From NCBI GenBank assembly GCA_964596525.1, contig CAZQUL010000001.1:460830-524829 (forward strand): a stretch of 64,000 nt of DNA, given 5' to 3'. The stretch comes from an uncultured Gammaproteobacteria bacterium (GTDB lineage Bacteria > Patescibacteriota > Patescibacteriia > Magasanikbacterales > GWA2-37-8). Of the stretch, positions 29,830 to 62,076 are shown one piece after another (positions within the stretch are counted from its first letter, which is position 1; every line of letters begins with the position of its first letter). The notes beneath the pieces are model-generated. The model ran no database searches. It saw only the letters and a list, made by a program, of their open reading frames with translations, and was not told the DNA's origin. The translations under genes were made by a program, and so were the position numbers.

Positions 29830-30441
29830 CTACTGGGTGGAGAAGGTCAGGAGCGGGCCTGTGGCGAAGGGCTTATCGGAAGGGCTGGACATCAGCGTCC
29901 ACGACCCTCCGGACTGTGTGCGGTACTTGGCGTTGACCAGGTCGACGCGAAGCGTTTCCTGGGCGTATGAGCCGTCATTGAGGCGCAGGTCCCCCATGAC
30001 GAGCCCAAACTCTGCGGTTTCGCCGGGGTACAACCCTACCCCGAAGTTTGTCTCACCGTTGACGAAGTAGCCGCGGCCACCATTCGGATCCCCGGTGTCG
30101 CCGGCAAAAGCGCCGTTCTGTCTCATGATCCTCCGGATCGAGAAGGAGTTCTCGGTCCGCTCGGCCAGGCTGCCGCTCACCTTGTAGATGAGTCCCAGCT
30201 GCACGCCGGGCTTCGCGTCGCACGACGTGGCCGGCGGAATGGTGATGCGTACCGTATTGACCCCGGCCAGGTCGTGGTAGATGACGTCTTTGGTGCCCAG
30301 GGTCTCGACGTGCTCGAGGATGGGCTGGCAGTTCGGGACGCCGGGAGCGATGTAGGTGTCGGTGGTGTCGCTCTCGGGCAGGCCGCAGGCGTTGGTGGTC
30401 AGGGCGAGAAAGGCCAGGGCGAACAGCGAATTCGTGCGCAT
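29830..30441 (-). CDS. Secreted hypothetical protein (203 aa)
   Basis: Signal peptide MRTNSLFALAFLALTTNACG. GGAGG SD. Family promoter upstream. Confidence 0.65.
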   Translation of the reverse strand: MRTNSLFALAFLALTTNACGLPESDTTDTYIAPGVPNCQPILEHVETLGTKDVIYHDLAGVNTVRITIPPATSCDAKPGVQLGLIYKVSGSLAERTENSFSIRRIMRQNGAFAGDTGDPNGGRGYFVNGETNFGVGLYPGETAEFGLVMGDLRLNDGSYAQETLRVDLVNAKYRTQSGGSWTLMSSPSDKPFATGPLLTFSTQ

Positions 30442-38181: not shown

Positions 38182-40029
38182 TCAAGGCTTGGTCGGCTCG
38201 GTCGACGCGGTGGCGTCGAGCCACCATTGCGACGGCTGGTTCGGCGTAGAAGCAGCCGGAACCGGCGTCACCTCTGTAGAAGAAGCCTTCGCGTTGGTGC
38301 TGCTGTTCTTCTTGATGTCATTCCCGGAAGGAACGACGCTCTTGAGGAAGCGCAGGCTCGCCCAGAGCACCAGGGCCGGCAGGAAGGATGTCACGACCAG
38401 GATCGCGAAGAATTCGTGATTCGGGATCTTGGTCCAGAGCTTGCCGAGCAGCCCGCAGAGGAAATTTCCAATGCAGGTGGAGAACATCCAGACGCCCATC
38501 ATGATTCCCTCACGGCCCTTCGGTGCCATCTTCGTCACGGTGGAGAGACCCATCGGCGACACGTGCAGCTCGCCGAGCGTGATGATGAAGTAGCAGCCGA
38601 TGAGCCAGAGCGGACTCACCTTGCCGGTGTTGCCACCGGCGAGCGAGGCTCCGACCATCACCGCGTAGCTCAGGCCGGTGAGGACCATGCCGATGCCCAT
38701 CTTGGCCGGCGTCGACGGCTCCATCTTCCGCTTCCTCAGGTACGCGTAGAACCGGTTCAGCGGACCCGTGAGGGTCACGATGAAGAACGGGTTCACGGCG
38801 TTGTAGATGAAGGGGCCGACGGTGTACGCCACGACAGGGACGGTGTAGGCGCGGGTGTTGTTGTCCGCCCAGAACGCGAGAACGTTGCCGTTCTGGTGGA
38901 AGGCCATCCAGAAAAATATGATGACCCCGGCCAACAGGCAGATGGCGAGGATCTTCAGGCGGGCGAGGGCGGGGTTGGACTCCTCCTCCTTCTGAACGAC
39001 GAGGTTCGCCGTCAGGTTGGAGGCGGCTCGCTCGAGCCAGGGGCGCGTGGCGAGCGCGATGATGAGAGCGAAGACCATGCCGATGCCTGCGCCGTTGAAG
39101 GCCCAGGTCCAGCCGTAGCGCGTCTGCATCACATCGGCCACGATCGGAGCGAAGAATGCTCCGACGTTGATGCCCATGTAGAAAATCGAGAAGCCCGCGT
39201 CACGGCGCGGATCGCCCTGCAGGTATAGAGCGCCCACCTTGTTCGACATGTTGGGCTTGAACAGCCCGTTGCCGATCACGATGAGCCCCATGCCGAGCCA
39301 CACATGCCACATCGCGCCCTGGCCGAGGGTGAAATAGCCAAGGCCCATGAGCACGATGCCCATGTAGATGGGCTTGTTGCGGCCGAGCCACTTGTCGGCA
39401 GCGTAGCCGCCGCCGAGCGGGGTAAAGTAGACGCCAGCATTGAACACGCCGTAGAACATGCTCGCGTCCGCGGCCGAGAGGTGGAAGTAGTTCTTCAGGT
39501 AGAGGCTGAAGAGCGCGATCATGGTATAGAACCCGAACCGCTCCCACATCTCGATGAAGAAGATGATGTAGAGGGCGCCGGGCTGCTTGGAGTTGTTGCC
39601 TCCGTCGCCAGGGCCACCCTCGGCCACCTTGTCCCACTCTAGCGGATGCGAGCCGCTCTCCGATGTATTTCTGGCGTTCGTGCTCGTCATCATGCAGATC
39701 AGGAGATGCAGGAACGGCGTCGAGCTCGGTTCGATGCGTGAGCAGAGGTTCTGCCAGACGCGCTTGGGGAGCGTCACCAGGAAATCCACAGCAGCCGCCG
39801 TTGAGGCGGTGTGCTCAAACACGAATGTGCTGGCCGTGCGCAAGATGCGCTGCAGTGCCGAGCGACGAAGGAAATCCCCCGCCGCCTGCACCGCCTTGTA
39901 GAGCTTTCCGTCCAGGCAGGCGAAGACAGCAATGAAGGGGGTCAGGAAGGCCATGACGGCCCGCTCGACAGCCTTGCTACCAGCATGCTCGTACGGAAAC
40001 AGGTTAGGGGACAACGTCGTCGCGTGCAT
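38182..40029 (-). CDS. Proton-dependent oligopeptide transporter (POT/PTR2 family) with a ~145-aa N-terminal extension
   Basis: Signature blocks FIEMWERFGFYTM and GGGYAADKWLGRNKPI. 12-14 TM helices. The start at 40029 has an AAGCGGAGGTGA SD. Confidence 0.85.
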   Translation of the reverse strand: MHATTLSPNLFPYEHAGSKAVERAVMAFLTPFIAVFACLDGKLYKAVQAAGDFLRRSALQRILRTASTFVFEHTASTAAAVDFLVTLPKRVWQNLCSRIEPSSTPFLHLLICMMTSTNARNTSESGSHPLEWDKVAEGGPGDGGNNSKQPGALYIIFFIEMWERFGFYTMIALFSLYLKNYFHLSAADASMFYGVFNAGVYFTPLGGGYAADKWLGRNKPIYMGIVLMGLGYFTLGQGAMWHVWLGMGLIVIGNGLFKPNMSNKVGALYLQGDPRRDAGFSIFYMGINVGAFFAPIVADVMQTRYGWTWAFNGAGIGMVFALIIALATRPWLERAASNLTANLVVQKEEESNPALARLKILAICLLAGVIIFFWMAFHQNGNVLAFWADNNTRAYTVPVVAYTVGPFIYNAVNPFFIVTLTGPLNRFYAYLRKRKMEPSTPAKMGIGMVLTGLSYAVMVGASLAGGNTGKVSPLWLIGCYFIITLGELHVSPMGLSTVTKMAPKGREGIMMGVWMFSTCIGNFLCGLLGKLWTKIPNHEFFAILVVTSFLPALVLWASLRFLKSVVPSGNDIKKNSSTNAKASSTEVTPVPAASTPNQPSQWWLDATASTEPTKP

Positions 40030-43054: not shown

Positions 43055-43399
43055 ATGCAAAGCGCAGATTCGTTTAAAACATCGATGCGGCGGGGGCTTA
43101 TTGAGTACGCGGTGCTCCTCATTATCGCCCAGGGCAAAGTGTATGCCGGGGATATTCTGGAGCTCCTCAAGCGGGCCGATCTCATCGTCGTAGAGGGGAC
43201 GCTCTATCCGCTCCTCAATCGCCTCAAGACGCAGGAACTTCTTACCTACGCATGGGAAGAATCGCGCGAAGGCCCGCCGCGCAAGTACTACAGCCTCACC
43301 GACGAAGGCAAGCGTGCGCTCAAAGATTTTGACGGCACGTGGAATCATTTGGTCTCTTCATTCACCACTTTACGCAGTACCTATGAAAACAACCATTAA
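43055..43399 (+). CDS. PadR-family transcriptional regulator
   Basis: Winged-helix blocks GTLYPLLNRL...EGPPRKYYSLTDEGKRAL. Confidence 0.8.
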   Translation: MQSADSFKTSMRRGLIEYAVLLIIAQGKVYAGDILELLKRADLIVVEGTLYPLLNRLKTQELLTYAWEESREGPPRKYYSLTDEGKRALKDFDGTWNHLVSSFTTLRSTYENNH

Positions 43400-43991
43400 T
43401 GTAACGCTCGGCGGGCAGCTCTTCGTGCTCGAAGAGGATGCTTATCAAGCATTAAAAAATTACCTCGACGAGGTGGAGCGCATTGTAGCGACGTATCCGG
43501 AACGCGCAGACATCATGGCCGACATCGAAGCGCGCTTGGCCGAAGAGCTGAAGCGCTCTGTAAGTGGTGGCGTGGTAACGACCGGCGTTTTGAGCGGAAT
43601 GCTCACGCGGCTTGGCACGCCCGAGGAACTCCGTCGCGAGTTGGGCGGGGCGGAACGCGAAAACGTTGCTGCTTCTTCGTCAGCTGGTTCGAGTTCTCAT
43701 TCTGCCGCGCCGCGCAAGAGCCGCCGCTTGTACCGTGATCCGGATGATCAGATCGTATCGGGTGTATGCTCGGGTATCGCCGCCTACATCGGGGTTGATC
43801 CAACGTGGGTGCGCATCGGTTTCGCGGTCGGCACGCTCGCGTGGGGAGCCGGGGTCTTCGTCTACCTCCTCCTTCTCATTATCGTTCCGGAAGCGAAAAC
43901 GCCGGAGCAAAAAGCCGAGCTCCATGGCGAGCCGCTCCGTTTGGCAGATATTGTAACGAGCGTTCGCAACGCCTTTGAGAAGAAAAAATAA
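43383..43991 (+). CDS. PspC-domain membrane protein
   Basis: LYRDPDDQIVSGVCSGIAAYIGVDPTWVRIGFAVGTLAWGAGVFVYLLLLIIVP is the PspC domain. Overlaps the PadR gene by 17 nt. Confidence 0.75.
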   Translation: MKTTINVTLGGQLFVLEEDAYQALKNYLDEVERIVATYPERADIMADIEARLAEELKRSVSGGVVTTGVLSGMLTRLGTPEELRRELGGAERENVAASSSAGSSSHSAAPRKSRRLYRDPDDQIVSGVCSGIAAYIGVDPTWVRIGFAVGTLAWGAGVFVYLLLLIIVPEAKTPEQKAELHGEPLRLADIVTSVRNAFEKKK

Positions 43992-44076: not shown

Positions 44077-44493
44077 TCATTCCCCAAAGAAAAAAGCACG
44101 TAATTTCTTGCGCTGCACCGCGCGCCAGGTAGTGAAGAACACCGGACGTTCAAACGGCGCGGCACGCTCGGCATCAATGCCCATTTTTTTAAACCACTCC
44201 TCGATCCGTTCGGGAGAAGAATGGGCGGGGTCGTATTCGACATTAATAATACCTTCGCTTGTTTCTGGTTCGTAATAGAGCCTGCACACGACAGGCGAGT
44301 GAGGGTTATAGGGAATATGCGCTCGGCCTGCAGCATATTTTTCTTCGAGGAAAAGAATATCGCCATGATACGTAGCCTCTAGTGCAGCGTCGAGCCAGCC
44401 CTTAAAAAAGAAACGGATTATTTTGTAGGGGAAGTCTTTGCCAATAACAAAAACGCCTTCTTTGTTTGCCCAGGAAAGATAGTTTTTGGACAT
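44077..44493 (-). CDS. Hypothetical protein, paralog 1 of a tandem pair (138 aa)
   Basis: Shares I-RF-FKGW...FL-EE...GI..ERA-PF blocks with the adjacent ORF. Confidence 0.55.
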   Translation of the reverse strand: MSKNYLSWANKEGVFVIGKDFPYKIIRFFFKGWLDAALEATYHGDILFLEEKYAAGRAHIPYNPHSPVVCRLYYEPETSEGIINVEYDPAHSSPERIEEWFKKMGIDAERAAPFERPVFFTTWRAVQRKKLRAFFFGE

Positions 44494-44497
44494 ATTT

Positions 44498-44917
44498 TCA
44501 ATTCCTCTCGAGATTCAGAAGCCATTTTTTAAATCTGCTCATGAGCGACTCTGGCTGCGAGATAAAAGGATCTGCTCGCTCAAGTTGTATGCCTAGTTCC
44601 ATGAAAAATTTCTCAGCTTTTTCGAGTTCTTCTCCTTGAGATGAAAGAATAAGCATTTCAAGGATATCTCCGGCCTGATCACCGCTAGTAAGGCCTGGAC
44701 TCTGTGGTTGCATGTAGATATTATCAAGTGTCCATGGTGGGGGAGGTGCACACCTCCCATGTTGATGTTCCTCGAACAAAAAACCGACGCTGTTATGAAA
44801 TTGTTCTTGGAGATGCCTATTTCTCCAACCTTTAAATACAAAACGATAGATACGGACTTCTTTTCGGGCACTCCCTAACGCTGTATAACGATTTCCCTTT
44901 TTTGAGATGAAGAGCAT
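44498..44917 (-). CDS. Hypothetical protein, paralog 2 of a tandem pair (139 aa), low local GC (~43%)
   Basis: IYRFVFKGW...FLFEE...GIQLERADPF. Separated from its paralog by 4 nt. Confidence 0.55.
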   Translation of the reverse strand: MLFISKKGNRYTALGSARKEVRIYRFVFKGWRNRHLQEQFHNSVGFLFEEHQHGRCAPPPPWTLDNIYMQPQSPGLTSGDQAGDILEMLILSSQGEELEKAEKFFMELGIQLERADPFISQPESLMSRFKKWLLNLERN

Positions 44918-45622: not shown

Positions 45623-48088
45623 ATGTCCGAACAACCTAAACTTTTTCCGCAGAAAATCGGCACCATCACGCCGACCCCGCTCGTTGATGAAATGAAGCAG
45701 GCGTACCTCGAGTACGCTATGAGCGTCATCGTCGCGCGTGCTCTCCCCGATGTGCGTGACGGCCTTAAGCCCGTACACCGCCGTATCCTCTATGCCATGT
45801 GGACCATGGGCCTTCGTCATGGCGCCAAATTCCGCAAATCCGCCCACGTGGTGGGTGAAGTGATGGCCAAGTACCACCCGCACGGCGACAGCGCCATTTA
45901 CGACTCGCTTGTCCGTATGGCGCAGGATTTTTCCATGCTCCATACGCTCGTCAAAGGCCAAGGTAACTTTGGTTCCATGGACGGTGACAGCGCCGCTGCC
46001 TATCGCTATACCGAAGCCAAGCTCGAAGCGATCGCCGAGGAACTTCTCTATGATATTGAAAAAGAAACCGTTCCGTTTGTCGCCAACTATGACGGTTCGC
46101 ACTCCGAGCCGAACGTGCTTCCGACCAAAGTACCGAACCTTCTTTTAAACGGCACGATGGGTATCGCGGTCGGTATGGCGACGAGCATTCCGCCGCACAA
46201 TTTAGGCGAGCTCTGCGAAGCTGTTACCACCCTTATCGAAAAACCGGAGACGACCATCGAAGAAATTGCCGACATCGTTAAAGGTCCGGATTTTCCGACT
46301 GGCGCCATCGTGTACGGCAAGAAAGACATCTTGAACGCGTACGCGACGGGCCGTGGCGGCGTTGTTATTCGCGCCAAAGCCGACATTAAAGAAACCAAGT
46401 CCGGCATGTTCCAGATCATCGTCTCCGAAGTGCCCTACCAAGTGAACAAAGCGACCCTCATCGAGAAAATTGCCGAGCTCGTGCAGGAGAAAAAACTCGA
46501 AGGCATCAAAGACCTGCGCGATGAGTCGAATAAAGATGGTGTTCGCGTGGTGGTTGAGCTTAAAAAAGACGCGTATCCCAAAAAAGTCCTTAACCAGCTC
46601 TATAATCTTACCGAACTCCAAACCACGTTTCATTACAACATGCTCGCGTTGGTGGATGGCATCCAACCACGCGTGTTGAACATCAAGACGATCCTTGAAG
46701 AATTTATCAAGCACCGCCAGGTAGTGATCCGCAAGCGCACCGAATACGATTTGGCCAAAACCAAAGACCGCGCTCACATTCTCGAAGGTCTCAAGATGGC
46801 GCTCGACCAAATCGACGCGGTTATCAAAACCATCCGCGCCGCGGCCGACAAAGACGTGGCCAAAGCAGATCTTATCAAGAAATTCGGCTTCTCCGACCGT
46901 CAGGCCACAGCCATTCTTGAAATGCGCTTGCAGCAGCTTGCCAACTTGGAGCGCAAGAAAATCGAAGATGAACTCAAAGAAAAACAGGCGCTCATCAAGG
47001 AACTCGAATCTATCCTCGCCTCCGAGAAGAAAATCCTCGGCATCATCAAGCAGGAAACCAGCGATATTAAAACGCAGTTCGGCATGGAGCGTCGCACGCA
47101 GATCGTTTCGCACGGCGTGAAGGAATTCACGGTCGAAGACCTCATCCCCAACGAACCTACCATCATCATCACGACGACCGACGGCTACATCAAACGCGTA
47201 CCGCCGGACACGTTCCGCCAGCAGTCGCGCGGCGGCAAAGGCGTCATTGGTGTCACTACCAAAGAAGAAGAATCAGTGGAGCGCCTCCTTACCACCAATA
47301 CGCACGACAATCTGCTTTTCTTCACCAACCGCGGCCGCGTGTTCCAGCTTCCGGCCTATGAAATTCCGCAGGGTAGCCGCACGGCCAAAGGCCAGGCGCT
47401 CGTGAACTTCTTGCAGCTCGCGCCCAACGAAAAAATTTCCACCATCCTCGCGATGAGCGACATAACCAATTTCAAGTACTTGGTTATGGCCACGCGCAAA
47501 GGCCTTATCAAAAAGACGCCGCTCGAGGATTTCGAGAACGTCCGTCGCAGCGGCATCATCGCCCTCAAACTCAAGCCTGAAGACGGTATGGAGTGGGTGT
47601 GCCCATCGACCGGCAAAGACAATGTGATGATCGCCACCAAAGAAGGCCAAGCTATCCGCTTCGAAGAAGACGATGTGCGTGCCATGGGGCGCGCGGCCGC
47701 CGGCGTGCACGGCATCCGCCTGCACGACAACGACGAAGTGATCGGTATGGACGTGGTTGATCCCAAGAATAAAGCCGTGCAGTTCCTCACCATCGGCGAG
47801 AACGGCCTCGGCAAACTTACCACCATCGACAGCTACAAAGTGCAGGGTCGCGGCGGCAGCGGCATTAAGACCGCCAAAGTCACCGAGAAAACCGGTTTCG
47901 TCATTCATGCCCAGGCGGTAGATACGACGAAAGCGAAAGAGCAGGACATCATCCTCATCTCCGCCAACGGCCAGACTATCCGCGTGCCCTTTAGCTCCAT
48001 TCCTTCGAGCGGTCGCGATACGCAGGGGGTTCGTCTCATGCGCTTCAAAGACGGGGAAGACAAAGTGGTAAGCGTGACGCTCATATAA
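45623..48088 (+). CDS. gyrA: DNA gyrase subunit A
   Basis: Active-site region AAYRYTEAKL and the QRDR-like block HPHGDSAIYDSLVRMAQ. 821 aa. Confidence 0.97.
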   Translation: MSEQPKLFPQKIGTITPTPLVDEMKQAYLEYAMSVIVARALPDVRDGLKPVHRRILYAMWTMGLRHGAKFRKSAHVVGEVMAKYHPHGDSAIYDSLVRMAQDFSMLHTLVKGQGNFGSMDGDSAAAYRYTEAKLEAIAEELLYDIEKETVPFVANYDGSHSEPNVLPTKVPNLLLNGTMGIAVGMATSIPPHNLGELCEAVTTLIEKPETTIEEIADIVKGPDFPTGAIVYGKKDILNAYATGRGGVVIRAKADIKETKSGMFQIIVSEVPYQVNKATLIEKIAELVQEKKLEGIKDLRDESNKDGVRVVVELKKDAYPKKVLNQLYNLTELQTTFHYNMLALVDGIQPRVLNIKTILEEFIKHRQVVIRKRTEYDLAKTKDRAHILEGLKMALDQIDAVIKTIRAAADKDVAKADLIKKFGFSDRQATAILEMRLQQLANLERKKIEDELKEKQALIKELESILASEKKILGIIKQETSDIKTQFGMERRTQIVSHGVKEFTVEDLIPNEPTIIITTTDGYIKRVPPDTFRQQSRGGKGVIGVTTKEEESVERLLTTNTHDNLLFFTNRGRVFQLPAYEIPQGSRTAKGQALVNFLQLAPNEKISTILAMSDITNFKYLVMATRKGLIKKTPLEDFENVRRSGIIALKLKPEDGMEWVCPSTGKDNVMIATKEGQAIRFEEDDVRAMGRAAAGVHGIRLHDNDEVIGMDVVDPKNKAVQFLTIGENGLGKLTTIDSYKVQGRGGSGIKTAKVTEKTGFVIHAQAVDTTKAKEQDIILISANGQTIRVPFSSIPSSGRDTQGVRLMRFKDGEDKVVSVTLI

Positions 48089-48096
48089 AACAAAAC

Positions 48097-48130
48097 AAAA
48101 AACTACCGGTACTTAGTCGGTAGTTTTTTG
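48097..48130. terminator. Bidirectional intrinsic terminator (A-run, ctaccg-gtacttagt-cggtag, T-run)
   Basis: Serves gyrA on plus and the convergent YdeI-like gene on minus. Confidence 0.7.
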
Positions 48131-48131
48131 T

Positions 48132-48371
48132 TTAGGAAGATCCTTTTTCTCGATGCGGGCACCCGGGCCAGCAACATGGCCGGCGCATGCCGCCGCCGAG
48201 TTTCGAGAGCGCTTTCTCAATGCGGATTGCGCGCGTCTCGACTTTTTTGCCCGACGTTACCCAGCAAATCCACTCGTTTTTGGCGAGCGGCGTAATGTCT
48301 TCCCACACGGCGTGCGCCTGGGGGTTAGATGCGAGGGCTTTTTTAAAATCTGCCGGGAGGCTGTGGGCCAT
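48132..48371 (-). CDS. YdeI/OmpD-associated-family small protein (DUF1801-like)
   Basis: PADFKKALASNPQAHAVWEDITPLAKNEWICWVTSGKKVETRAIRIEKALSKL. Start at MAHSL. The 233-aa track ORF runs upstream across the tRNA and is not supported. Confidence 0.6.
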   Translation of the reverse strand: MAHSLPADFKKALASNPQAHAVWEDITPLAKNEWICWVTSGKKVETRAIRIEKALSKLGGGMRRPCCWPGCPHREKGSS

Positions 48372-48392
48372 ATGTTTCCGACATAAATAACG

Positions 48393-48467
48393 TGGTGCTC
48401 TCGAAAGGAATCGAACCTTTATTTTCGGCTTCGGAGGCCAATGTCCTATCCGTTGAACGACGAGAGC
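48393..48467 (-). tRNA. tRNA-Arg (anticodon CCG)
   Basis: The reverse complement folds as a cloverleaf. Acceptor GCTCTCG/CGAGAGC, D-stem GTTC/GGAC, anticodon loop CTCCGAA, T-arm AAGGTTCGATTCCTT, 3' ACCA encoded. Confidence 0.85.
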
Positions 48468-48513
48468 GAATCTATCTCGCTCACTGTAGCGTAAATGGTT
48501 GGGTTTGGCAATG

Positions 48514-48541
48514 AATGATAAACGACCCGTGGGGGCGGGTC
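48514..48541 (-). terminator. AAACGACC-family terminator hairpin after paralog C
   Basis: gataaacgacccg-tggggg-cgggtcg. Confidence 0.5.
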
Positions 48542-48559
48542 GCGAAAGAGTGGGTCGGA

Positions 48560-49177
48560 TTATGTGGACGGCGGCGGAAGCTCGATAAGCACGCAGGAGA
48601 GCTCTCCACCGAGGAGGCGCAGCCGGAGCCGTTCGGCCACCGGGCGCAGTGCCGGAAAAAAGTAGAGTTTGCGCGGCGCACAGGAAGTGCGCAGTATTTC
48701 CACCATCTCCATTTCGATCGGGAGTGCCTGGTCGTACTCCGCGGGCGGGGGATCTCCGGTCCATGGATAGCAGAGGTGGATGCGGTTCGTTTCCGTTAGA
48801 AATCCTTCCAGGTGGTGCGGGATGCTGCGCCATCTCCGGTACGTTGCGCGGTCGATGAGGAGCGTTCCGTCACGGCTGACATCGAGCGCGTACTGGCCCT
48901 CGCGGAATATAACGGCCTCGTGGCGTTTTCTTTGTTCGTTTTCGATGGCGCGTATTGCATTCCCAACCACCAGCCCAATGGGCATAAACCCCAAGCAGCA
49001 GAAAAAGTTGCCGAGCCCAAGGAGCGTAAACACGAAGACTACGACCAGCGCCCACCCGAAGCCGCCCATGATAACGAGCGCTAAGAGCCCGATTTCTGAT
49101 ACCTGCGAGAACGGCTTCTTGATGTGTGCAAGCTGCCCGGCATTCTCTGAACCTTGATACTTTACCAGAGCACTCAT
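48560..49177 (-). CDS. Paralog C of the 2-TM membrane protein family
   Basis: GGAGGAG SD. TM pair, then a soluble domain ending RKLYFFPALRPVAERLRLRL. ATGA start-stop overlap with the upstream 100-aa gene. Confidence 0.7.
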   Translation of the reverse strand: MSALVKYQGSENAGQLAHIKKPFSQVSEIGLLALVIMGGFGWALVVVFVFTLLGLGNFFCCLGFMPIGLVVGNAIRAIENEQRKRHEAVIFREGQYALDVSRDGTLLIDRATYRRWRSIPHHLEGFLTETNRIHLCYPWTGDPPPAEYDQALPIEMEMVEILRTSCAPRKLYFFPALRPVAERLRLRLLGGELSCVLIELPPPST

Positions 49178-49476
49178 CGTTGACTCCTCCGTGCCTGTTC
49201 GGCGGCTATACGGCTCGCTTGCTCGTTGCGGATTTTTTTCACCACGAACGGAATGCAGAATCCAGTGGCGAGAGCGATGGCGAGTCCCACTACCGGGTGC
49301 AATCCGATGAGACCACAGACGATGGCGGTTAGCACATCGCCCCAGAAGAGCGGTGTCACTATACCGAGAGCATACAAGACGCCGAGAGTCAGTTTCGAAA
49401 ACGGGGGAGGGGTGCGCGCGATATCTCGGGTAGCGTCGTGCGTCGTGGTTTGGACTAATGAATTGAAAGAACTCAT
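49174..49476 (-). CDS. Small 2-TM protein carrying the PPP motif (100 aa), co-transcribed with paralog C
   Basis: GGAGGAA SD. RTPPPFSKLTLGV followed by two TM helices. Confidence 0.65.
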   Translation of the reverse strand: MSSFNSLVQTTTHDATRDIARTPPPFSKLTLGVLYALGIVTPLFWGDVLTAIVCGLIGLHPVVGLAIALATGFCIPFVVKKIRNEQASRIAAEQARRSQR

Positions 49477-49515
49477 TATCAGTTCCTCCGTGATCGTGTG
49501 GTGCAGTAATGGATC

Positions 49516-49544
49516 AACATACCACCTCGGTTCTGGCGCGTCAA
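49516..49544 (-). promoter_or_regulatory. Promoter TTGACG-17-TGgTATGTT of the C'-C unit
   Basis: Family architecture on the minus strand. Confidence 0.5.
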
Positions 49545-49582
49545 TTACTGCCGGTTGGGCGTGCGTGGCATAAGTAGGTTTC

Positions 49583-49613
49583 CAAAATTGAAACGACCTG
49601 CCAGGGCAGGTCG
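49583..49613 (-). terminator. AAACGACC-family terminator after paralog B
   Basis: aaattgaaacgacctgcc-ag-ggcaggtcg. Confidence 0.5.
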
Positions 49614-49643
49614 TAAGGGTGAGGAGAACTCGTCTGCAAACGG

Positions 49644-50267
49644 TCAGTCCTTGAGCTCTACGAAATCACACTGCTTCTCGCGGTTACCAAACTCACGCTG
49701 CAGGTCGTAGAGCTCGCGCTGTAACCGCTTGGCGACCGGGGCGAACTCGCTCTGGTAGAACAGCGTGCGCGGCGCGGGCATGTTGAGCAGGAGACGCCAT
49801 AGGTCTCCTTCCATGATCGAAGACCCGTCTGCAGCGCTGTGCCAGAACAGCACGATGTGGGGTTCGTCCGCAGAAGCGAGCTGCTTTTTGTGGAGCGCCC
49901 AGTCCCGAAACGTCTGGTGATCGACCAGGTAGAGCTTATGGGTGAAAGACGCCCGATGTTCTTGGTCAAGACCGTAGAGAACGCTTTGGCCTCGGTGGTA
50001 AGCATCGGCCATGAGCCGGTATAGGTGGTCTTTATAGGCGCGCCAGCACAGGTATATCCAGCAGATCGCCGAAATCGCCACGATGACGTACCCTGCCGTC
50101 TCGTTGGCGATGTAGATGTTGTTGAGGGCGAGGAGAATCTGTTGAGGAACGTAAATCAGGAGTAAGGTGCTGACGGTCCAGATTCCTACATCGAGCAACG
50201 TGCGCGGCGGGGGGGTGAGGCAAAGATCCATTGCCAGATCAGACGGGGTGGGATTCTTGGTTTTCAT
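49644..50267 (-). CDS. Paralog B of the 2-TM membrane protein family (207 aa)
   Basis: LTPPPRTLLDVGIW, two TM helices, then LYLVDHQTFRDW...FAPVAKRLQRELYDL. Confidence 0.7.
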   Translation of the reverse strand: MKTKNPTPSDLAMDLCLTPPPRTLLDVGIWTVSTLLLIYVPQQILLALNNIYIANETAGYVIVAISAICWIYLCWRAYKDHLYRLMADAYHRGQSVLYGLDQEHRASFTHKLYLVDHQTFRDWALHKKQLASADEPHIVLFWHSAADGSSIMEGDLWRLLLNMPAPRTLFYQSEFAPVAKRLQRELYDLQREFGNREKQCDFVELKD

Positions 50268-50392
50268 GCTTCTTCTCCGTTTCGAGTTGAGAATTACCCT
50301 TGTGCGGATGAGTTGTGGATTTACAGTATACGTTTGTTCTTATCAAAGAGCAATCGTGTTCCACCGTAAGTTGAGTTTCACGATAACAGAAA

Positions 50393-50421
50393 ATGATATC
50401 ACTTTTCGTTCGTCAGGTCAA
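50393..50421 (-). promoter_or_regulatory. Candidate promoter TTGACC-17-TATCAT for paralog B
   Basis: Minus-strand reading; implies a 5' UTR of about 120 nt. Confidence 0.4.
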
Positions 50422-50463
50422 TATCAGAGATTGATGTATTTTCCACGGTGTGTAGCTACAGTA

Positions 50464-50489
50464 ATTGAAACGACCCGTGGTGCGGGTCG
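50464..50489 (-). terminator. AAACGACC-family terminator after paralog A
   Basis: gtaattgaaacgacccg-tggtg-cgggtcg. Confidence 0.5.
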
Positions 50490-50514
50490 TGGGGATGGGG
50501 GCGTGGTGAGACGC

Positions 50515-51150
50515 TTACTGCGGCAGTTCGAATATCCGGCTGAAGCGACCGAGGGCCTCGAGCTTCTTCTGGAGGCGCTCGGCGACCGGCTTGAGGTGCG
50601 GCGGGTAGTAGATTTTCCGGCGCGGCATCATCATGAGCCGTTTGGCGATCCGCTGCTCCCGACTTCGATCTTCGATGTTGGCGCGTTCTGCGTGCCACGG
50701 CTCGAAGATGGAGAGTTTGCGGTAGTTGACCTGCTCGTTGAAGAGCTGTGCCGCTTCCATATCGGGACGGAATGCTTCGGAGTCGACGAGGGTGAGCCGA
50801 TCGAAGATGAAGGTCTGGTGCGTGCGGATTCGCTCGCTGAGATAGGGGGCGACCTTACGGATCGCCTCGCCTGCCAGACGTCGCAGGTGGTTCTTCTCCT
50901 CGCGTGTCACGAGGATGTACGGCAGTATGAAGTAGCAGGCGTAGGTGAGAATCCTGAGCCACGGCCACCAGTATGCACCCGCGAGCTTCTTTGTTATTCC
51001 GGTGAAGAGGGCCCAGGGTATGCCACTGAGGCCGCAGATGATCATGATGAGCATGATCCACACGGCCCGCATGAAGAGAGTGCGTGGCGGGGGCAGGAGT
51101 ACGAGCTTGCGGACATCGTCGAAGGTCTCGATTTTTACCAAAGAACGCAT
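50515..51150 (-). CDS. Paralog A of the 2-TM membrane protein family (211 aa from the ATG)
   Basis: CTGGAGGATG SD. LLPPPRTLFMRAVW, two TM helices, then FIFDRLTLVDSEAFRPD...PHLKPVAERLQKKLEAL. The track's TTG-extended start at 51219 overlaps the -35 box. Confidence 0.7.
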   Translation of the reverse strand: MRSLVKIETFDDVRKLVLLPPPRTLFMRAVWIMLIMIICGLSGIPWALFTGITKKLAGAYWWPWLRILTYACYFILPYILVTREEKNHLRRLAGEAIRKVAPYLSERIRTHQTFIFDRLTLVDSEAFRPDMEAAQLFNEQVNYRKLSIFEPWHAERANIEDRSREQRIAKRLMMMPRRKIYYPPHLKPVAERLQKKLEALGRFSRIFELPQ

Positions 51151-51190
51151 CGTTTCATCCTCCAGGTCCAGGGTTTCGGGGTAACGGAGC

Positions 51191-51219
51191 AGCTTACCAC
51201 GCTTTTTGGCGTAAGTCAA
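51191..51219 (-). promoter_or_regulatory. Promoter TTGACT-17-TGgTAAGCT for paralog A
   Basis: Family architecture on the minus strand. Confidence 0.5.
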
Positions 51220-51296
51220 TCTATCCCCTTGCCAAACGCTTTATTCTGCGCTATATTGGCCTCATCACTTAACTTTGTTAGCTTTTGTATTTCTGT

Positions 51297-51578
51297 ATGG
51301 GTCTTCCCGGTCATCGCCGCACATCGTCGCATAAACGTCGCCGCGCGGCTCATTTTGCCCTCACTGAAGGGGCCATGCAAACCTGCTCACACTGCCAGAA
51401 ACCGGTCCGTCCGCACCGCGCCTGCGCTTTTTGCGGTTACTATAAAGGACGTCCGGTGATGGTTACGAGCCGCATGAAGAAACTCGAGCGCGCCAGCAAA
51501 CCGGCCGCTAAAAAGCCAGCTACTCGCAAGAAAAAAGCCGCTGCCACGGAAACGGCTCCCGCCGCTTCCGCCAGCTAA
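51297..51578 (+). CDS. rpmF: 50S ribosomal protein L32 with a Lys/Ala-rich C-terminal extension
   Basis: MGLPGHRRTSSHKRRRAAHFAL...CSHCQKPVRPHRACAFCGYYKGRPV is a zinc-ribbon L32. The 40-aa tail is KKPAAKKPATRKKKAAA... Confidence 0.8.
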   Translation: MGLPGHRRTSSHKRRRAAHFALTEGAMQTCSHCQKPVRPHRACAFCGYYKGRPVMVTSRMKKLERASKPAAKKPATRKKKAAATETAPAASAS

Positions 51579-51603
51579 CTTAATTCCTTGACGTTCTTTT
51601 CGT

Positions 51604-52113
51604 ATGGCCAATCGCCACCTCGCGCGGAGCATTGCCATGCAGTCGCTCTTTGAATGGGATTTTCGCGACCGCCCTACCGCCGCTATACCCGCTATCGTTG
51701 AACACAACATCACCGAGTTCGGTCCGGGTCTCGAAGAAAAAGACTTCGCTCGTTTTCTGGTTGAAGGTGTTATTGAACATCTGCCGGAAATTGACGCGAT
51801 CGTCACAAAATATGCGCCCAACTGGCCGCTCAACCAGATCATGACGGTCGACCGCAACATTTTGCGTATCGGTGTTTTTGAACTGCGTTACTGCAACAAA
51901 GACGTGCCGCCCAAAGTTGCCATCAACGAGGCTATCGAGATCGCCAAAACCTTCGGTGGCCAGTCCTCGGGCCGGTTCGTGAACGGCGTGCTCGGATCAC
52001 TCTATAACGATTTGCAAAAAGACGGCTTGGCGCCGCCACCCACCACGCAGAGTGCTCCCGAGCCGGCACCTGCCGTCCAAGCGGCGCCGGAAGCGGTTGC
52101 TCAACAGGCTTAA
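51604..52113 (+). CDS. nusB: Transcription antitermination factor NusB
   Basis: [52 protein letters not shown]. Confidence 0.85.
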
Positions 52114-52125
52114 CTTCCTCCATGT

Positions 52126-52902
52126 ATGAGTCGAGCAAGCGTCAATCTACTCCCAGAAGTCATTGCTAAAAATTTCAAATCGCTTGAAGAAAAAATCGGG
52201 GTTACTTTTGAACGTCCCGAATGTTTGGTGCAGGCGTTCGTGCATCGCTCGTATCTCAACGAACATCACGATTTTCCGCTCCACCACAACGAACGGCTGG
52301 AATTTTTGGGTGATGCTGTGCTTGAGCTCGCGGTAACTGAATATCTCTTCCACGAATACGCTAACCCCGAGGGTGACCTTACCAATCTGCGCGCCGCGCT
52401 CGTCAATGCGCGTATGCTCGCCGAAATCGCTTACGAAATCGGCATGGAGCCGTACCTCTTTTTGAGCCACGGCGAAGCCAAAGACGCCGGTACCAAAGCG
52501 CGCGATTACATCATGGCCAATGCCATGGAAGCGCTTATCGGCGCCATTTATCTCGACAAAGGTTACGTCATCGCCAATCAGTTTATCACCCGCTGGATCT
52601 TGGTGCGTATTCCGTTCGCGCTCGAGAAACGTCTCGACATTGACGCTAAGAGCCGCTTCCAAGAAGCATCGCAAGAACTCCTCGGTATCACGCCGACATA
52701 TAAGGTTCTCCACGAAGAAGGTCCGGACCATGCCAAGATGTTCAAAGTCGGCGTGTTTCTCGACAAAGAAATGGTGGCGATCGGCGAAGGCATGAGCAAG
52801 CAAGAAGCTCAGACCGACGCTGCTGAAAAAGCCATAGCGGTCAAGAACTGGAAAGTGAAAACCATCGAGCTCATTAAACGAGAACCAGACGGACAGTTGT
52901 AA
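52126..52902 (+). CDS. rnc: Ribonuclease III
   Basis: RNase III signature ERLEFLGDAVLELAVTEYLF and a C-terminal dsRBD. Confidence 0.9.
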   Translation: MSRASVNLLPEVIAKNFKSLEEKIGVTFERPECLVQAFVHRSYLNEHHDFPLHHNERLEFLGDAVLELAVTEYLFHEYANPEGDLTNLRAALVNARMLAEIAYEIGMEPYLFLSHGEAKDAGTKARDYIMANAMEALIGAIYLDKGYVIANQFITRWILVRIPFALEKRLDIDAKSRFQEASQELLGITPTYKVLHEEGPDHAKMFKVGVFLDKEMVAIGEGMSKQEAQTDAAEKAIAVKNWKVKTIELIKREPDGQL

Positions 52903-61439: not shown

Positions 61440-61982
61440 CTAGAGGGGGAAGTCGCTCGCGATCGATGCGTCGTCGGCGACCTTCACGGGTGCGGGCTGG
61501 CTGCGCATCTCGACGGGCGCTTGCCGGCGCAGAGTCACGGTGAACTCGATCGCACCGAGCGTCGACTTGAGCTTGATCGCGCGGTCGAGCACGCCCGGCC
61601 CTGGAGTCAGGTTCTTCACCGGGTCGTCGATGTCCTGGTAGGACAGGACCGCTTCCACGACCGGGCCTTTGCCCCGGTTGCAGAACACCGTGAGCTGTCC
61701 AATGGTATCGTCCACCTGGATTAAGTTGCCGTAGCAGGCGGAGCGCAGGGTGACCTGCCAGCCGTCGCTCGAGACCGAGGCGATGCTGAGCGTTCCCCAG
61801 CCCGAGGGCTCGAAGGAGCTCCGCTCGTTCTGGAAGATCCGCTTGAACCAGGCCGGCTGCTCCTCCACCTTCGGGGCTTCATGGTGCGAGGAGCGGTGGT
61901 GCTTGCGGGCCTCGGCGGAGGGCGGGGTGGACAGGGTGAAGGCGGTGGCGAGAGCGGCGGTGAAAAGAGCGATCTTGCGCAT
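61440..61982 (-). CDS. Secreted hypothetical protein (181 aa from the ATG at 61982)
   Basis: GGAGG SD. Signal peptide MRKIALFTAALATAFTLSTPPSAEA. The track's 62057 start is upstream of the SD. Confidence 0.6.
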   Translation of the reverse strand: MRKIALFTAALATAFTLSTPPSAEARKHHRSSHHEAPKVEEQPAWFKRIFQNERSSFEPSGWGTLSIASVSSDGWQVTLRSACYGNLIQVDDTIGQLTVFCNRGKGPVVEAVLSYQDIDDPVKNLTPGPGVLDRAIKLKSTLGAIEFTVTLRRQAPVEMRSQPAPVKVADDASIASDFPL

Positions 61983-62047
61983 GGTTCCTCCGTTGTGGTC
62001 CAGTACACTCCAGGTCGAATTTTCGGGTCCTGGATTCTCAACGTCAT

Positions 62048-62076
62048 AGTTTACCATAAAAAGGTGGTTTTGTCAA
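62048..62076 (-). promoter_or_regulatory. Promoter cTTGACAaaa-17-TGgTAAACT (minus strand)
   Basis: Shares an identical 15-mer with the promoter at 30508..30536. Confidence 0.6.

Follow-up and report, generated by a model that had tools for sequence, protein, structure and literature searches.

What does a row of small membrane-protein genes do, and how did it arise, when it stands between housekeeping genes of a patescibacterial genome and resembles no protein in public databases? The row in question was analysed in a 64-kb stretch of DNA (contig CAZQUL010000001.1 of assembly GCA_964596525.1), referred to below as the window, to which all coordinates refer. It comprises genes A, B, D and C, which lie in tandem on the minus strand between gyrA and rpmF–nusB–rnc. 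It can be said with considerable confidence that three full-length genes (A, B, C) and a truncated one (D) arose by tandem duplication and constitute an orphan accessory family. The explanation as a whole, in which the members of this orphan tandem family would serve as membrane-tethered cytoplasmic binding modules, is given slightly less than an even chance. A first reading of the DNA letters (the original prediction) had proposed a diversified set of membrane sensors, receptors or immunity proteins; the diversified accessory array is retained here, and the external sensor or receptor and the immunity function are not (see below).

The paralogy of A, B and C, proposed at the outset for three tandem minus-strand genes, holds, and their open reading frames (ORFs) are confirmed at the same positions. 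In pairwise BLASTP, A and B match with E 2e-11 (28% identity), A and C with 1e-3, and B and C with 0.012. Because two of these pairs are weak, jackknife profiles were run, in which a hidden Markov model built from two paralogues is compared with the full set of 859 stop-to-stop ORFs in the window. The third paralogue is found with E 1e-11 (A), 7e-7 (B) and 7e-6 (C), and the next unrelated ORF has E > 0.2. The C-terminal domains alone give E 2e-8, 4e-5 and 4e-6 in the same test and beat 200 of 200 sequence shuffles in each pair; the paralogy is statistically sound. Identity between the paralogues is 23–28%, and the protein motifs are kept despite diverged DNA. The invariant columns are L121, D123, R128, W152, E165, R178, P188-V-A-x-R-L and E208-L209, and the blocks of the soluble domain that had been singled out originally, L-LVD--(A/T)(F/Y)R and PVA(E/K)RL, are invariant or nearly so. 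No further paralogue was found in the window.

The matches of protein D to C (E 3e-5), to A (4e-5) and to a profile built without D (7e-5) identify it as a fourth paralogue, truncated to the N-terminal membrane module. An N-terminal PPP motif had been attributed to all three full-length genes. It is present in A and B, but C has IKKPFSQV in its place, and the third motif cited, RTPPPFSKL, sits in D, so that PPP is restricted to A, B and D. The stop codon of D and the start codon of C overlap as ATGA, and neither promoter nor hairpin was found between the two genes, which very probably form one bicistronic, translationally coupled unit. Protein B bears the N-terminal motif twice, as TPPPRTLL (residues 19–26) and as MPAPRTLFY (residues 164–172, in the β3 region of the C-terminal domain); at the DNA level, 49758..49778 and 50193..50213 (minus strand) are identical at 18 of 21 positions. 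The counterparts of the second site are RRKIYY in A and APRKLYF in C. This repetition could be due to chance or codon bias, or the N-terminal peptide could mimic a strand of the C-terminal domain.

Codon frame, jackknife profiles, and ribosome-binding sites (RBSs) with promoters indicate that the four are real protein-coding genes. Log-odds of codon usage, with 15 housekeeping genes from the window as the training set, rank the annotated frame best of the three same-strand frames in every case (+0.22, +0.11, +0.08 and −0.01, against −0.39 to −1.0 in the other frames), and the long opposite-strand ORFs, such as 50167..51459, have negative values. The RBSs of A, D and C are of GGAGGA type, 6–8 nt 5′ of ATG, and that of B is GGAGAAG. 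Automatic gene callers begin A at a TTG at 51219 (234 amino acids, aa). That TTG opens the −35 hexamer of A itself, which makes ATG 51150, preceded at a distance of 7 nt by GGAGGA (51158..51163), the likely start. That the array consists of non-functional ORFs, either decaying duplicates or chance frames, would accord with the truncation of D and with the lack of homologues anywhere, but is extremely improbable: codon usage singles out the annotated frame of each of the four genes, the motifs have outlasted the divergence of the DNA, and the RBS, promoter and hairpin of each unit are intact.

The same array occurs in two independent Logan assemblies (0 and 1 mismatches; at most 1 in 10.9 kb), and an NCBI source has records of B, C and D. 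The array is therefore not an assembly artefact. It is known from one population only.

The flanks of the genes bear on how the duplication took place. In the original prediction, each gene had its own promoter and terminator, and the regulatory flanks had been duplicated with the genes. Promoters are recognizable ahead of A, B and the D–C pair, and related GC-rich hairpins follow A, B and C (Table 1). The pattern CGACCYG-N(3-9)-CRGGTCGTTT occurs exactly three times in the 64 kb, 18–31 nt past the stop codons of A, B and C, where 0.01 occurrences are expected; this expectation is flattered by the derivation of the pattern from these very sites, and it is its absence elsewhere in the window that counts. 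A relaxed pattern has one additional match. The folding z-scores of the hairpins are −2.7 to −4.6. Their U-tracts are short (UUUCAAUU, UUUAUCAUU), and a simple terminator scan accepts the hairpins of B and C but rejects that of A, for which reasons some read-through is possible.

A and B have GGTCGTTTCAATT in common, and 47 nt separate the hairpin from the next −35 hexamer at both the A/B and the B/D junctions. The rest of the two spacers is similar at chance level (15/46, p ~0.2). The RBS/start regions of A, C and D belong to a 25-nt repeat family with 72% identity. These repeats demonstrate that the 3′ hairpin and the translation-initiation region were part of what was duplicated. The claim about the regulatory flanks thus holds for the RBS/start region, for the 47-nt distance between hairpin and promoter and for the hairpin with GTTTCAATT, but not for the promoters beyond their consensus. 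The sequence TTGAC-N15-TGNTA is found ahead of A, B and D (51195..51219, 50397..50421 and 49520..49544). The window contains 13 matches to it (0.3 expected), which marks it as the general extended −10 consensus of this genome and not, as was supposed, as a promoter of the family. With the consensus masked, the array promoters are 0.34–0.39 identical, compared with a mean of 0.27 (standard deviation, sd, 0.05) for all promoter pairs, or 1.4–2.4 sd above it. This residual similarity is suggestive of common descent, weakly and short of proof, and inclusion of the promoter in the duplication unit is plausible.

The leader of B, from its consensus promoter to ATG (50268..50392, minus strand), is ~120 nt long, whereas those of A and D are ~30–35 nt. 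It contains a second, weaker promoter-like site, TTGCTC-17-TATACT, and has no Rfam match; the Rfam matches in the window are tRNAs only.

Integron cassettes were also considered. An attC site spans ~57–141 bp with a GTTRRRY core, and integron cassettes lack promoters. On sequence inspection, the hairpins of the array are 22–23 nt and are followed by GTTTCAA, which misfits GTTRRRY, and each unit has its own promoter; this origin was rejected.

Table 1. Features of the array and its surroundings (window coordinates)
Feature	Position	Strand	Remarks
Gene A	50515..51150	−	211 aa from ATG; LLPPPRTLF N-terminus, transmembrane hairpin, cytoplasmic α/β domain (predicted)
Gene B	49644..50267	−	207 aa; LTPPPRTLL N-terminus, transmembrane hairpin, cytoplasmic α/β domain (predicted)
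Gene D	49174..49476	−	100 aa; RTPPPFSKL, transmembrane hairpin, basic tail; truncated paralogue
Gene C	48560..49177	−	205 aa; IKKPFSQV, no PPP; transmembrane hairpin, cytoplasmic α/β domain (predicted)
Promoter of A	51191..51219	−	TTGACT-17-TAAGCT, TG extension; pattern match; divergent from rpmF promoter region
Promoter of B	50393..50421	−	TTGACC-17-TATCAT, TG extension; pattern match; followed by ~120-nt leader
Promoter of D–C bicistron	49516..49544	−	TTGACG-17-TATGTT, TG extension; pattern match
Hairpin 3′ of A	50468..50489	−	CGACCCGCACCACGGGTCGTTT; −13.7 kcal/mol; weak U-tract
Hairpin 3′ of B	49591..49613	−	CGACCTGCCCTGGCAGGTCGTTT; −18.5 kcal/mol
Hairpin 3′ of C	48520..48542	−	CGACCCGCCCCCACGGGTCGTTT; −14.3 kcal/mol; directly upstream of tRNA-Arg(CCG) promoter-like site
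gyrA	45623..48088	+	
OmdA/YdeI C-terminal domain gene	48132..48371	−	79 aa, domain only; Pfam E 5e-19; converges on gyrA
tRNA-Arg(CCG)	48393..48467	−	
rpmF	about 51297..51578	+	
nusB	51604..52113		3′ of rpmF
rnc	52126..52902		3′ of nusB

To judge by database searches, the array genes form a species-restricted protein family that is new in sequence terms. Protein A retrieved only itself from 5.8e9 clusters, a three-sequence profile retrieved only A, B and C from all 1.84e9 cluster representatives, and a four-sequence profile retrieved only A, C and D from the 5.8e9 clusters; A–D are all singleton clusters among ~15e9 sequences. No relative was found in IMG/VR viral contigs, in JGI metagenome contigs or in 31 related loci, and no match of the array proteins in Pfam, NCBIfam, PADLOC or PHROGs has E < 0.01; PDB sequences include no match either. 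The family is thus taxonomically restricted, and the initial failure to match its soluble domain to a known family extends to profile and structure searches. The profile searches assigned none of the proteins to a housekeeping family.

Genes of this kind are common in the phylum: the AGNOSTOS catalogue holds 54,343 lineage-specific clusters of unknown function in Patescibacteria, of which 45,788 are restricted to the species level (PMC9132574). The array is like them in being taxonomically restricted and unannotated in a genome of the candidate phyla radiation (CPR), and differs in being a tidy 3.5-copy tandem array with one promoter per unit, a shared hairpin, and a predictable fold and topology. 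Neither its architecture (a transmembrane, TM, hairpin with a small α/β domain) nor its genomic behaviour (duplication in tandem within a variable slot) is out of the ordinary. If a definable activity were assigned to it, the array would represent a new protein family with no relative among ~15 billion public proteins, in a phylum whose biology has been deduced largely from genes that lack annotation. It is also a compact example of how orphan genes originate and diversify, in which a duplicated unit with its RBS/start region and terminator-like hairpin gave rise to three full copies, now diverged, and a split one within a slot of changing cargo. Without a phenotype, it is one more of the many species-level orphan clusters of Patescibacteria (PMC9132574).

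The relatives of the RNase III encoded by rnc, among GTDB species representatives, are from metagenome-assembled genomes of Candidatus Magasanikiibacteriota/Patescibacteria (best identity 83%), which places the host as a Candidatus Magasanikiibacteriota (Patescibacteria/CPR) bacterium. In 15 related loci (L004, L008, L009 and L013–L024), gyrA lies upstream of rpmF–nusB–rnc in the same orientation, and A–D are absent from all 15. Between the gyrA end and the nusB start lie 995–6688 bp in these relatives and 3.5 kb here (48088..51604), and the cargo of the slot varies. It is usually a FemAB-family gene on the opposite strand together with NUDIX, TrmB, AAA_14/DUF4143, TMEM43, transketolase, APH-like or His_Phos_1 genes; no FemAB-like gene is present anywhere in the 64-kb window. 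The cargo of the relatives is unrelated to A–D (tblastn E > 1; hmmsearch E > 0.09), and small two-TM proteins and a Zn-ribbon-like protein in the slots of L004, L014 and L018 were rejected as diverged orthologues (hhalign probability < 1%). The closest relative, L003, has another gene set upstream of rpmF. Gene order thus shows a slot of variable content between gyrA and rpmF–nusB–rnc, which the array occupies as accessory cargo. The view that it is not a housekeeping operon is upheld by its absence from all 15 syntenic relatives and from ~15 billion public proteins.

No integrase, transposase or flanking repeats were seen near the array. An island inserted at a tRNA gene was rejected, because the array lies 5′ of tRNA-Arg and not at its 3′ end, and neither flanking direct repeats nor an integrase was found. 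Foreign origin by base composition was rejected as well. The regional GC content is ordinary, and the high GC content at third codon positions (GC3, 0.70–0.80) also occurs in native membrane genes, for instance that of the POT transporter (0.87); as the array genes follow the trend of the other membrane or secreted genes, high GC3 is not a sign of foreign origin here. Very high GC3 (0.85–0.87) is observed at 29830..30441, 38182..40029 and 61440..62057, which contain membrane or secreted genes including the POT-family transporter, and housekeeping genes have 0.55–0.69. A perfect 16-nt inverted repeat that resembles a bidirectional terminator is present between gyrA and the OmdA gene (48093..48133).

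These properties of the locus would suit lineage-specific structural or regulatory membrane adaptors that tether a cytoplasmic factor to the envelope, a function for which relatives would use other proteins. The strong consensus promoters and good RBSs, the position among housekeeping genes with no mobile-element genes nearby, and a base composition like that of the rest of the window, including a GC3 shared with its membrane and secreted genes such as the POT transporter, speak for this role. It is nonetheless unlikely, about as much so as the conflict role considered below, since no sequenced relative has the genes, not even one whose Rnc is 83% identical, and three diverged copies with a fragment are atypical for a fixed physiological adaptor.

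An orphan array of immunity proteins, directed against toxins or bacteriocins that act on the membrane or in the cytoplasm, was part of the original prediction. Tandem, diverged paralogues that appear to be individually expressed would be consistent with it, as would the adjacent gene for an OmdA (‘bacteriocin-protection, YdeI’) domain by its Pfam name. That name is an annotation label and not evidence. The annotated neighbourhood contains no toxin-like gene, PADLOC gave no match, and immunity families normally have homologues elsewhere, whereas this one has none. On these grounds the genes do not match a polymorphic-toxin or bacteriocin immunity array, and an immunity function in general is distinctly improbable.

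The membrane topology of the proteins was derived from hydropathy and charge counts. Each of A–D has a single hydrophobic block of ~55 aa (residues ~22–81), which fits the two TM helices proposed originally; no hydrophobic stretch follows residue ~81 in the array proteins, and none of them has a signal peptide. Lysine and arginine (K/R) residues number 1–2 before TM1, 0–2 in the short loop and 3–4 directly after TM2. According to the positive-inside rule, K/R-rich flanks are cytoplasmic. This distribution therefore predicts a hairpin with both termini inside (N-in/C-in), with the C-terminal domain in the cytoplasm and ~2–14 residues outside; the prediction is less certain for A than for the other three, where it is clear.

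Proteins predicted to be membrane-bound could conceivably act at the surface as receptors or sensors, either of external signals or of host cells, and Patescibacteria are often episymbionts that need host-contact proteins. Such a role is very improbable, because the N-in/C-in hairpin leaves only ~2–14 residues outside, and the large domain follows a K/R-rich stretch with no signal peptide ahead of it. The outward-facing sensor or receptor of the original prediction is abandoned on the same charge pattern, from which the C-terminal domain as well as both termini are predicted to be cytoplasmic. D taken alone is like class II-type holins and other small phage membrane proteins in having 100 aa, two TM helices, N-in/C-in topology and a basic C-terminal tail; the full-length copies differ from them by an extra domain. 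A holin function for D was rejected, with a best PHROG match of E 0.027, no endolysin or phage genes adjacent, and no relatives on viral contigs.

The ~125-aa cytoplasmic tail is modelled as a long helix followed by a four-strand Rossmann-like domain of ~95 aa, in the order β-α-β-α-β-α-β. AlphaFold2 with the three-sequence alignment gave a predicted local distance difference test score (pLDDT) of 58 for full-length A. For residues 82–211 of A, it gave a pLDDT of 67 and a predicted template-modelling score (pTM) of 0.59, with a pLDDT of 78–89 over the last 60 residues. In Foldseek, the best match of the full-length model in PDB has E 0.083 (RecR, ThsB), and that of the domain model in BFVD has E 0.012; the weak fold matches, which include ThsB/TIR, Toprim and nucleoside deoxyribosyltransferase-like proteins, are non-significant or generic. 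The structural comparison of the soluble domain thus returns, at the level of the model, a generic minimal Rossmann-like sandwich that belongs to no specific family. It shares with other minimal Rossmann-like domains (RecR Toprim, PTS EIIA-Man, Argonaute MID, TIR/ThsB, nucleoside 2-deoxyribosyltransferase) a three-layer α/β sandwich, four parallel-type strands, and conserved residues near strand C-termini. TIR, Toprim, receiver and other named Rossmann-like families were rejected: there is no significant sequence match, no specific structural match and no catalytic signature.

A PIN nuclease was considered for its hhhD at the end of β1, an invariant Glu 42 residues on and a second invariant Glu near the C-terminus. 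PIN domains have ~130 aa and four conserved acidic residues. Here only D123, E165 and E208 are invariant, ~95 aa extend from β1 to the end, no PIN or VapC protein is among the fold matches listed, and Pfam gives no match, so this candidate was dropped. Rossmann-like domains usually bind ligands at the C-terminal edge of the strands. In the model, the invariant polar residues are predicted to lie at or near the C-terminal ends of β1 (LVD) and β2 (W) and in the β3–α3 loop or helix start (PVAxRL).

On these features the following mechanism is proposed. The array proteins would be membrane-tethered binding modules, whose α/β domain would use its conserved crown to bind either a nucleotide-like small molecule of the cytoplasm or a partner protein, and whose TM hairpins would drive homo- or hetero-oligomerisation in the membrane. 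The N-terminal module may be a separable, interacting subunit, since D consists of PPP and hairpin only, while the coupled C has lost PPP. A cytoplasm-facing binding module as such is given about even chances.

What such modules might serve is suggested by the Cap15/2TMbeta effectors, whose N-terminal TM helices precede a cytoplasmic C-terminal domain for ligand binding, and which oligomerise to collapse the inner membrane (PMC12657230). The array proteins are like Cap15 of CBASS (cyclic-oligonucleotide-based anti-phage signalling system) and 2TMbeta of Panoptes in their N-terminal TM helices, small cytoplasmic domain and length of ~200 aa (PMC12657230). In those effectors, the domain is a β-barrel that binds cyclic dinucleotides, and a cyclase gene adjoins; in the array, it is α/β, no cyclase is present, and there is neither a sequence match nor a PADLOC match. 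Compared feature by feature, the N-terminal TM pair is found in A–D as the ~55-aa block, but a C-terminal cyclic-nucleotide-binding β-barrel is not, and neither is an adjacent cyclase (CD-NTase or mCpol), the neighbours being gyrA, OmdA, tRNA-Arg and rpmF–nusB–rnc.

The restriction to one species, the divergence of the copies, the cargo-swapping slot and the parallel to Cap15/2TMbeta are the reasons for which a conflict-type role (phage exclusion or abortive infection) is favoured, doubtfully, over a core cell function. More specifically, the array could encode stand-alone anti-phage or abortive-infection effectors, in which a cytoplasmic sensor domain would respond to an infection cue or to a lost metabolite, and oligomerised hairpins would collapse the membrane in the manner of Cap15/2TMbeta (PMC12657230). 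This is rather unlikely. It agrees with the shared order of TM pair and cytoplasmic domain, with a taxonomically restricted family whose copies are 23–28% identical in a variable slot amid conserved genes, and with the weak fold matches to ThsB/TIR, Toprim and nucleoside deoxyribosyltransferase-like proteins. Those matches are non-significant or generic, however; PADLOC is silent, no cyclase or other signalling partner is nearby, the domain is α/β and not a β-barrel, and three consensus promoters would imply constitutive expression of a would-be toxin. A hitherto unseen, self-contained class of membrane effector, which would join a TM hairpin to a minimal Rossmann-like (TIR/Toprim/MID-like) nucleotide sensor and in which the diversified copies and the hairpin-only D would give phage exclusion or abortive infection with no separate signalling enzyme, is quite improbable.

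Several observations weigh against the membrane-tethered binding modules and their possible conflict role. The loop of A holds two K/R residues, which makes its topology less clear-cut. The domain model, built on a three-sequence alignment, is of only moderate confidence, with pLDDT < 50 at its residues 19–33 and 48–63, and neither a ligand nor a catalytic signature could be assigned to the C-terminal domain. The genes next to the array (gyrA, the OmdA-domain gene, tRNA-Arg and rpmF–nusB–rnc) include no partner such as a cyclase, nuclease, toxin or integrase. The fold of the domain differs from that of Cap15/2TMbeta, and PADLOC did not respond to the array. In addition, the consensus promoters suggest constitutive expression, which is unusual for an unregulated membrane-disrupting effector.

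Two further gene pairs were observed elsewhere in the window, upstream of gyrA. Another tandem pair of paralogues is encoded on the minus strand at 44077..44493 (138 aa) and 44498..44917 (139 aa); the two proteins match with BLASTP E 1e-11 and 30% identity and have no Pfam match, and of all kilobases in the window the one with this pair has the lowest GC content (0.453). At 43314..43991, a protein with PspC and HAAS domains is encoded next to a gene that is called PadR in the matching Logan contig (region 43037..43991); these two genes, which precede gyrA by a few kb, resemble a pair of the envelope-stress type.

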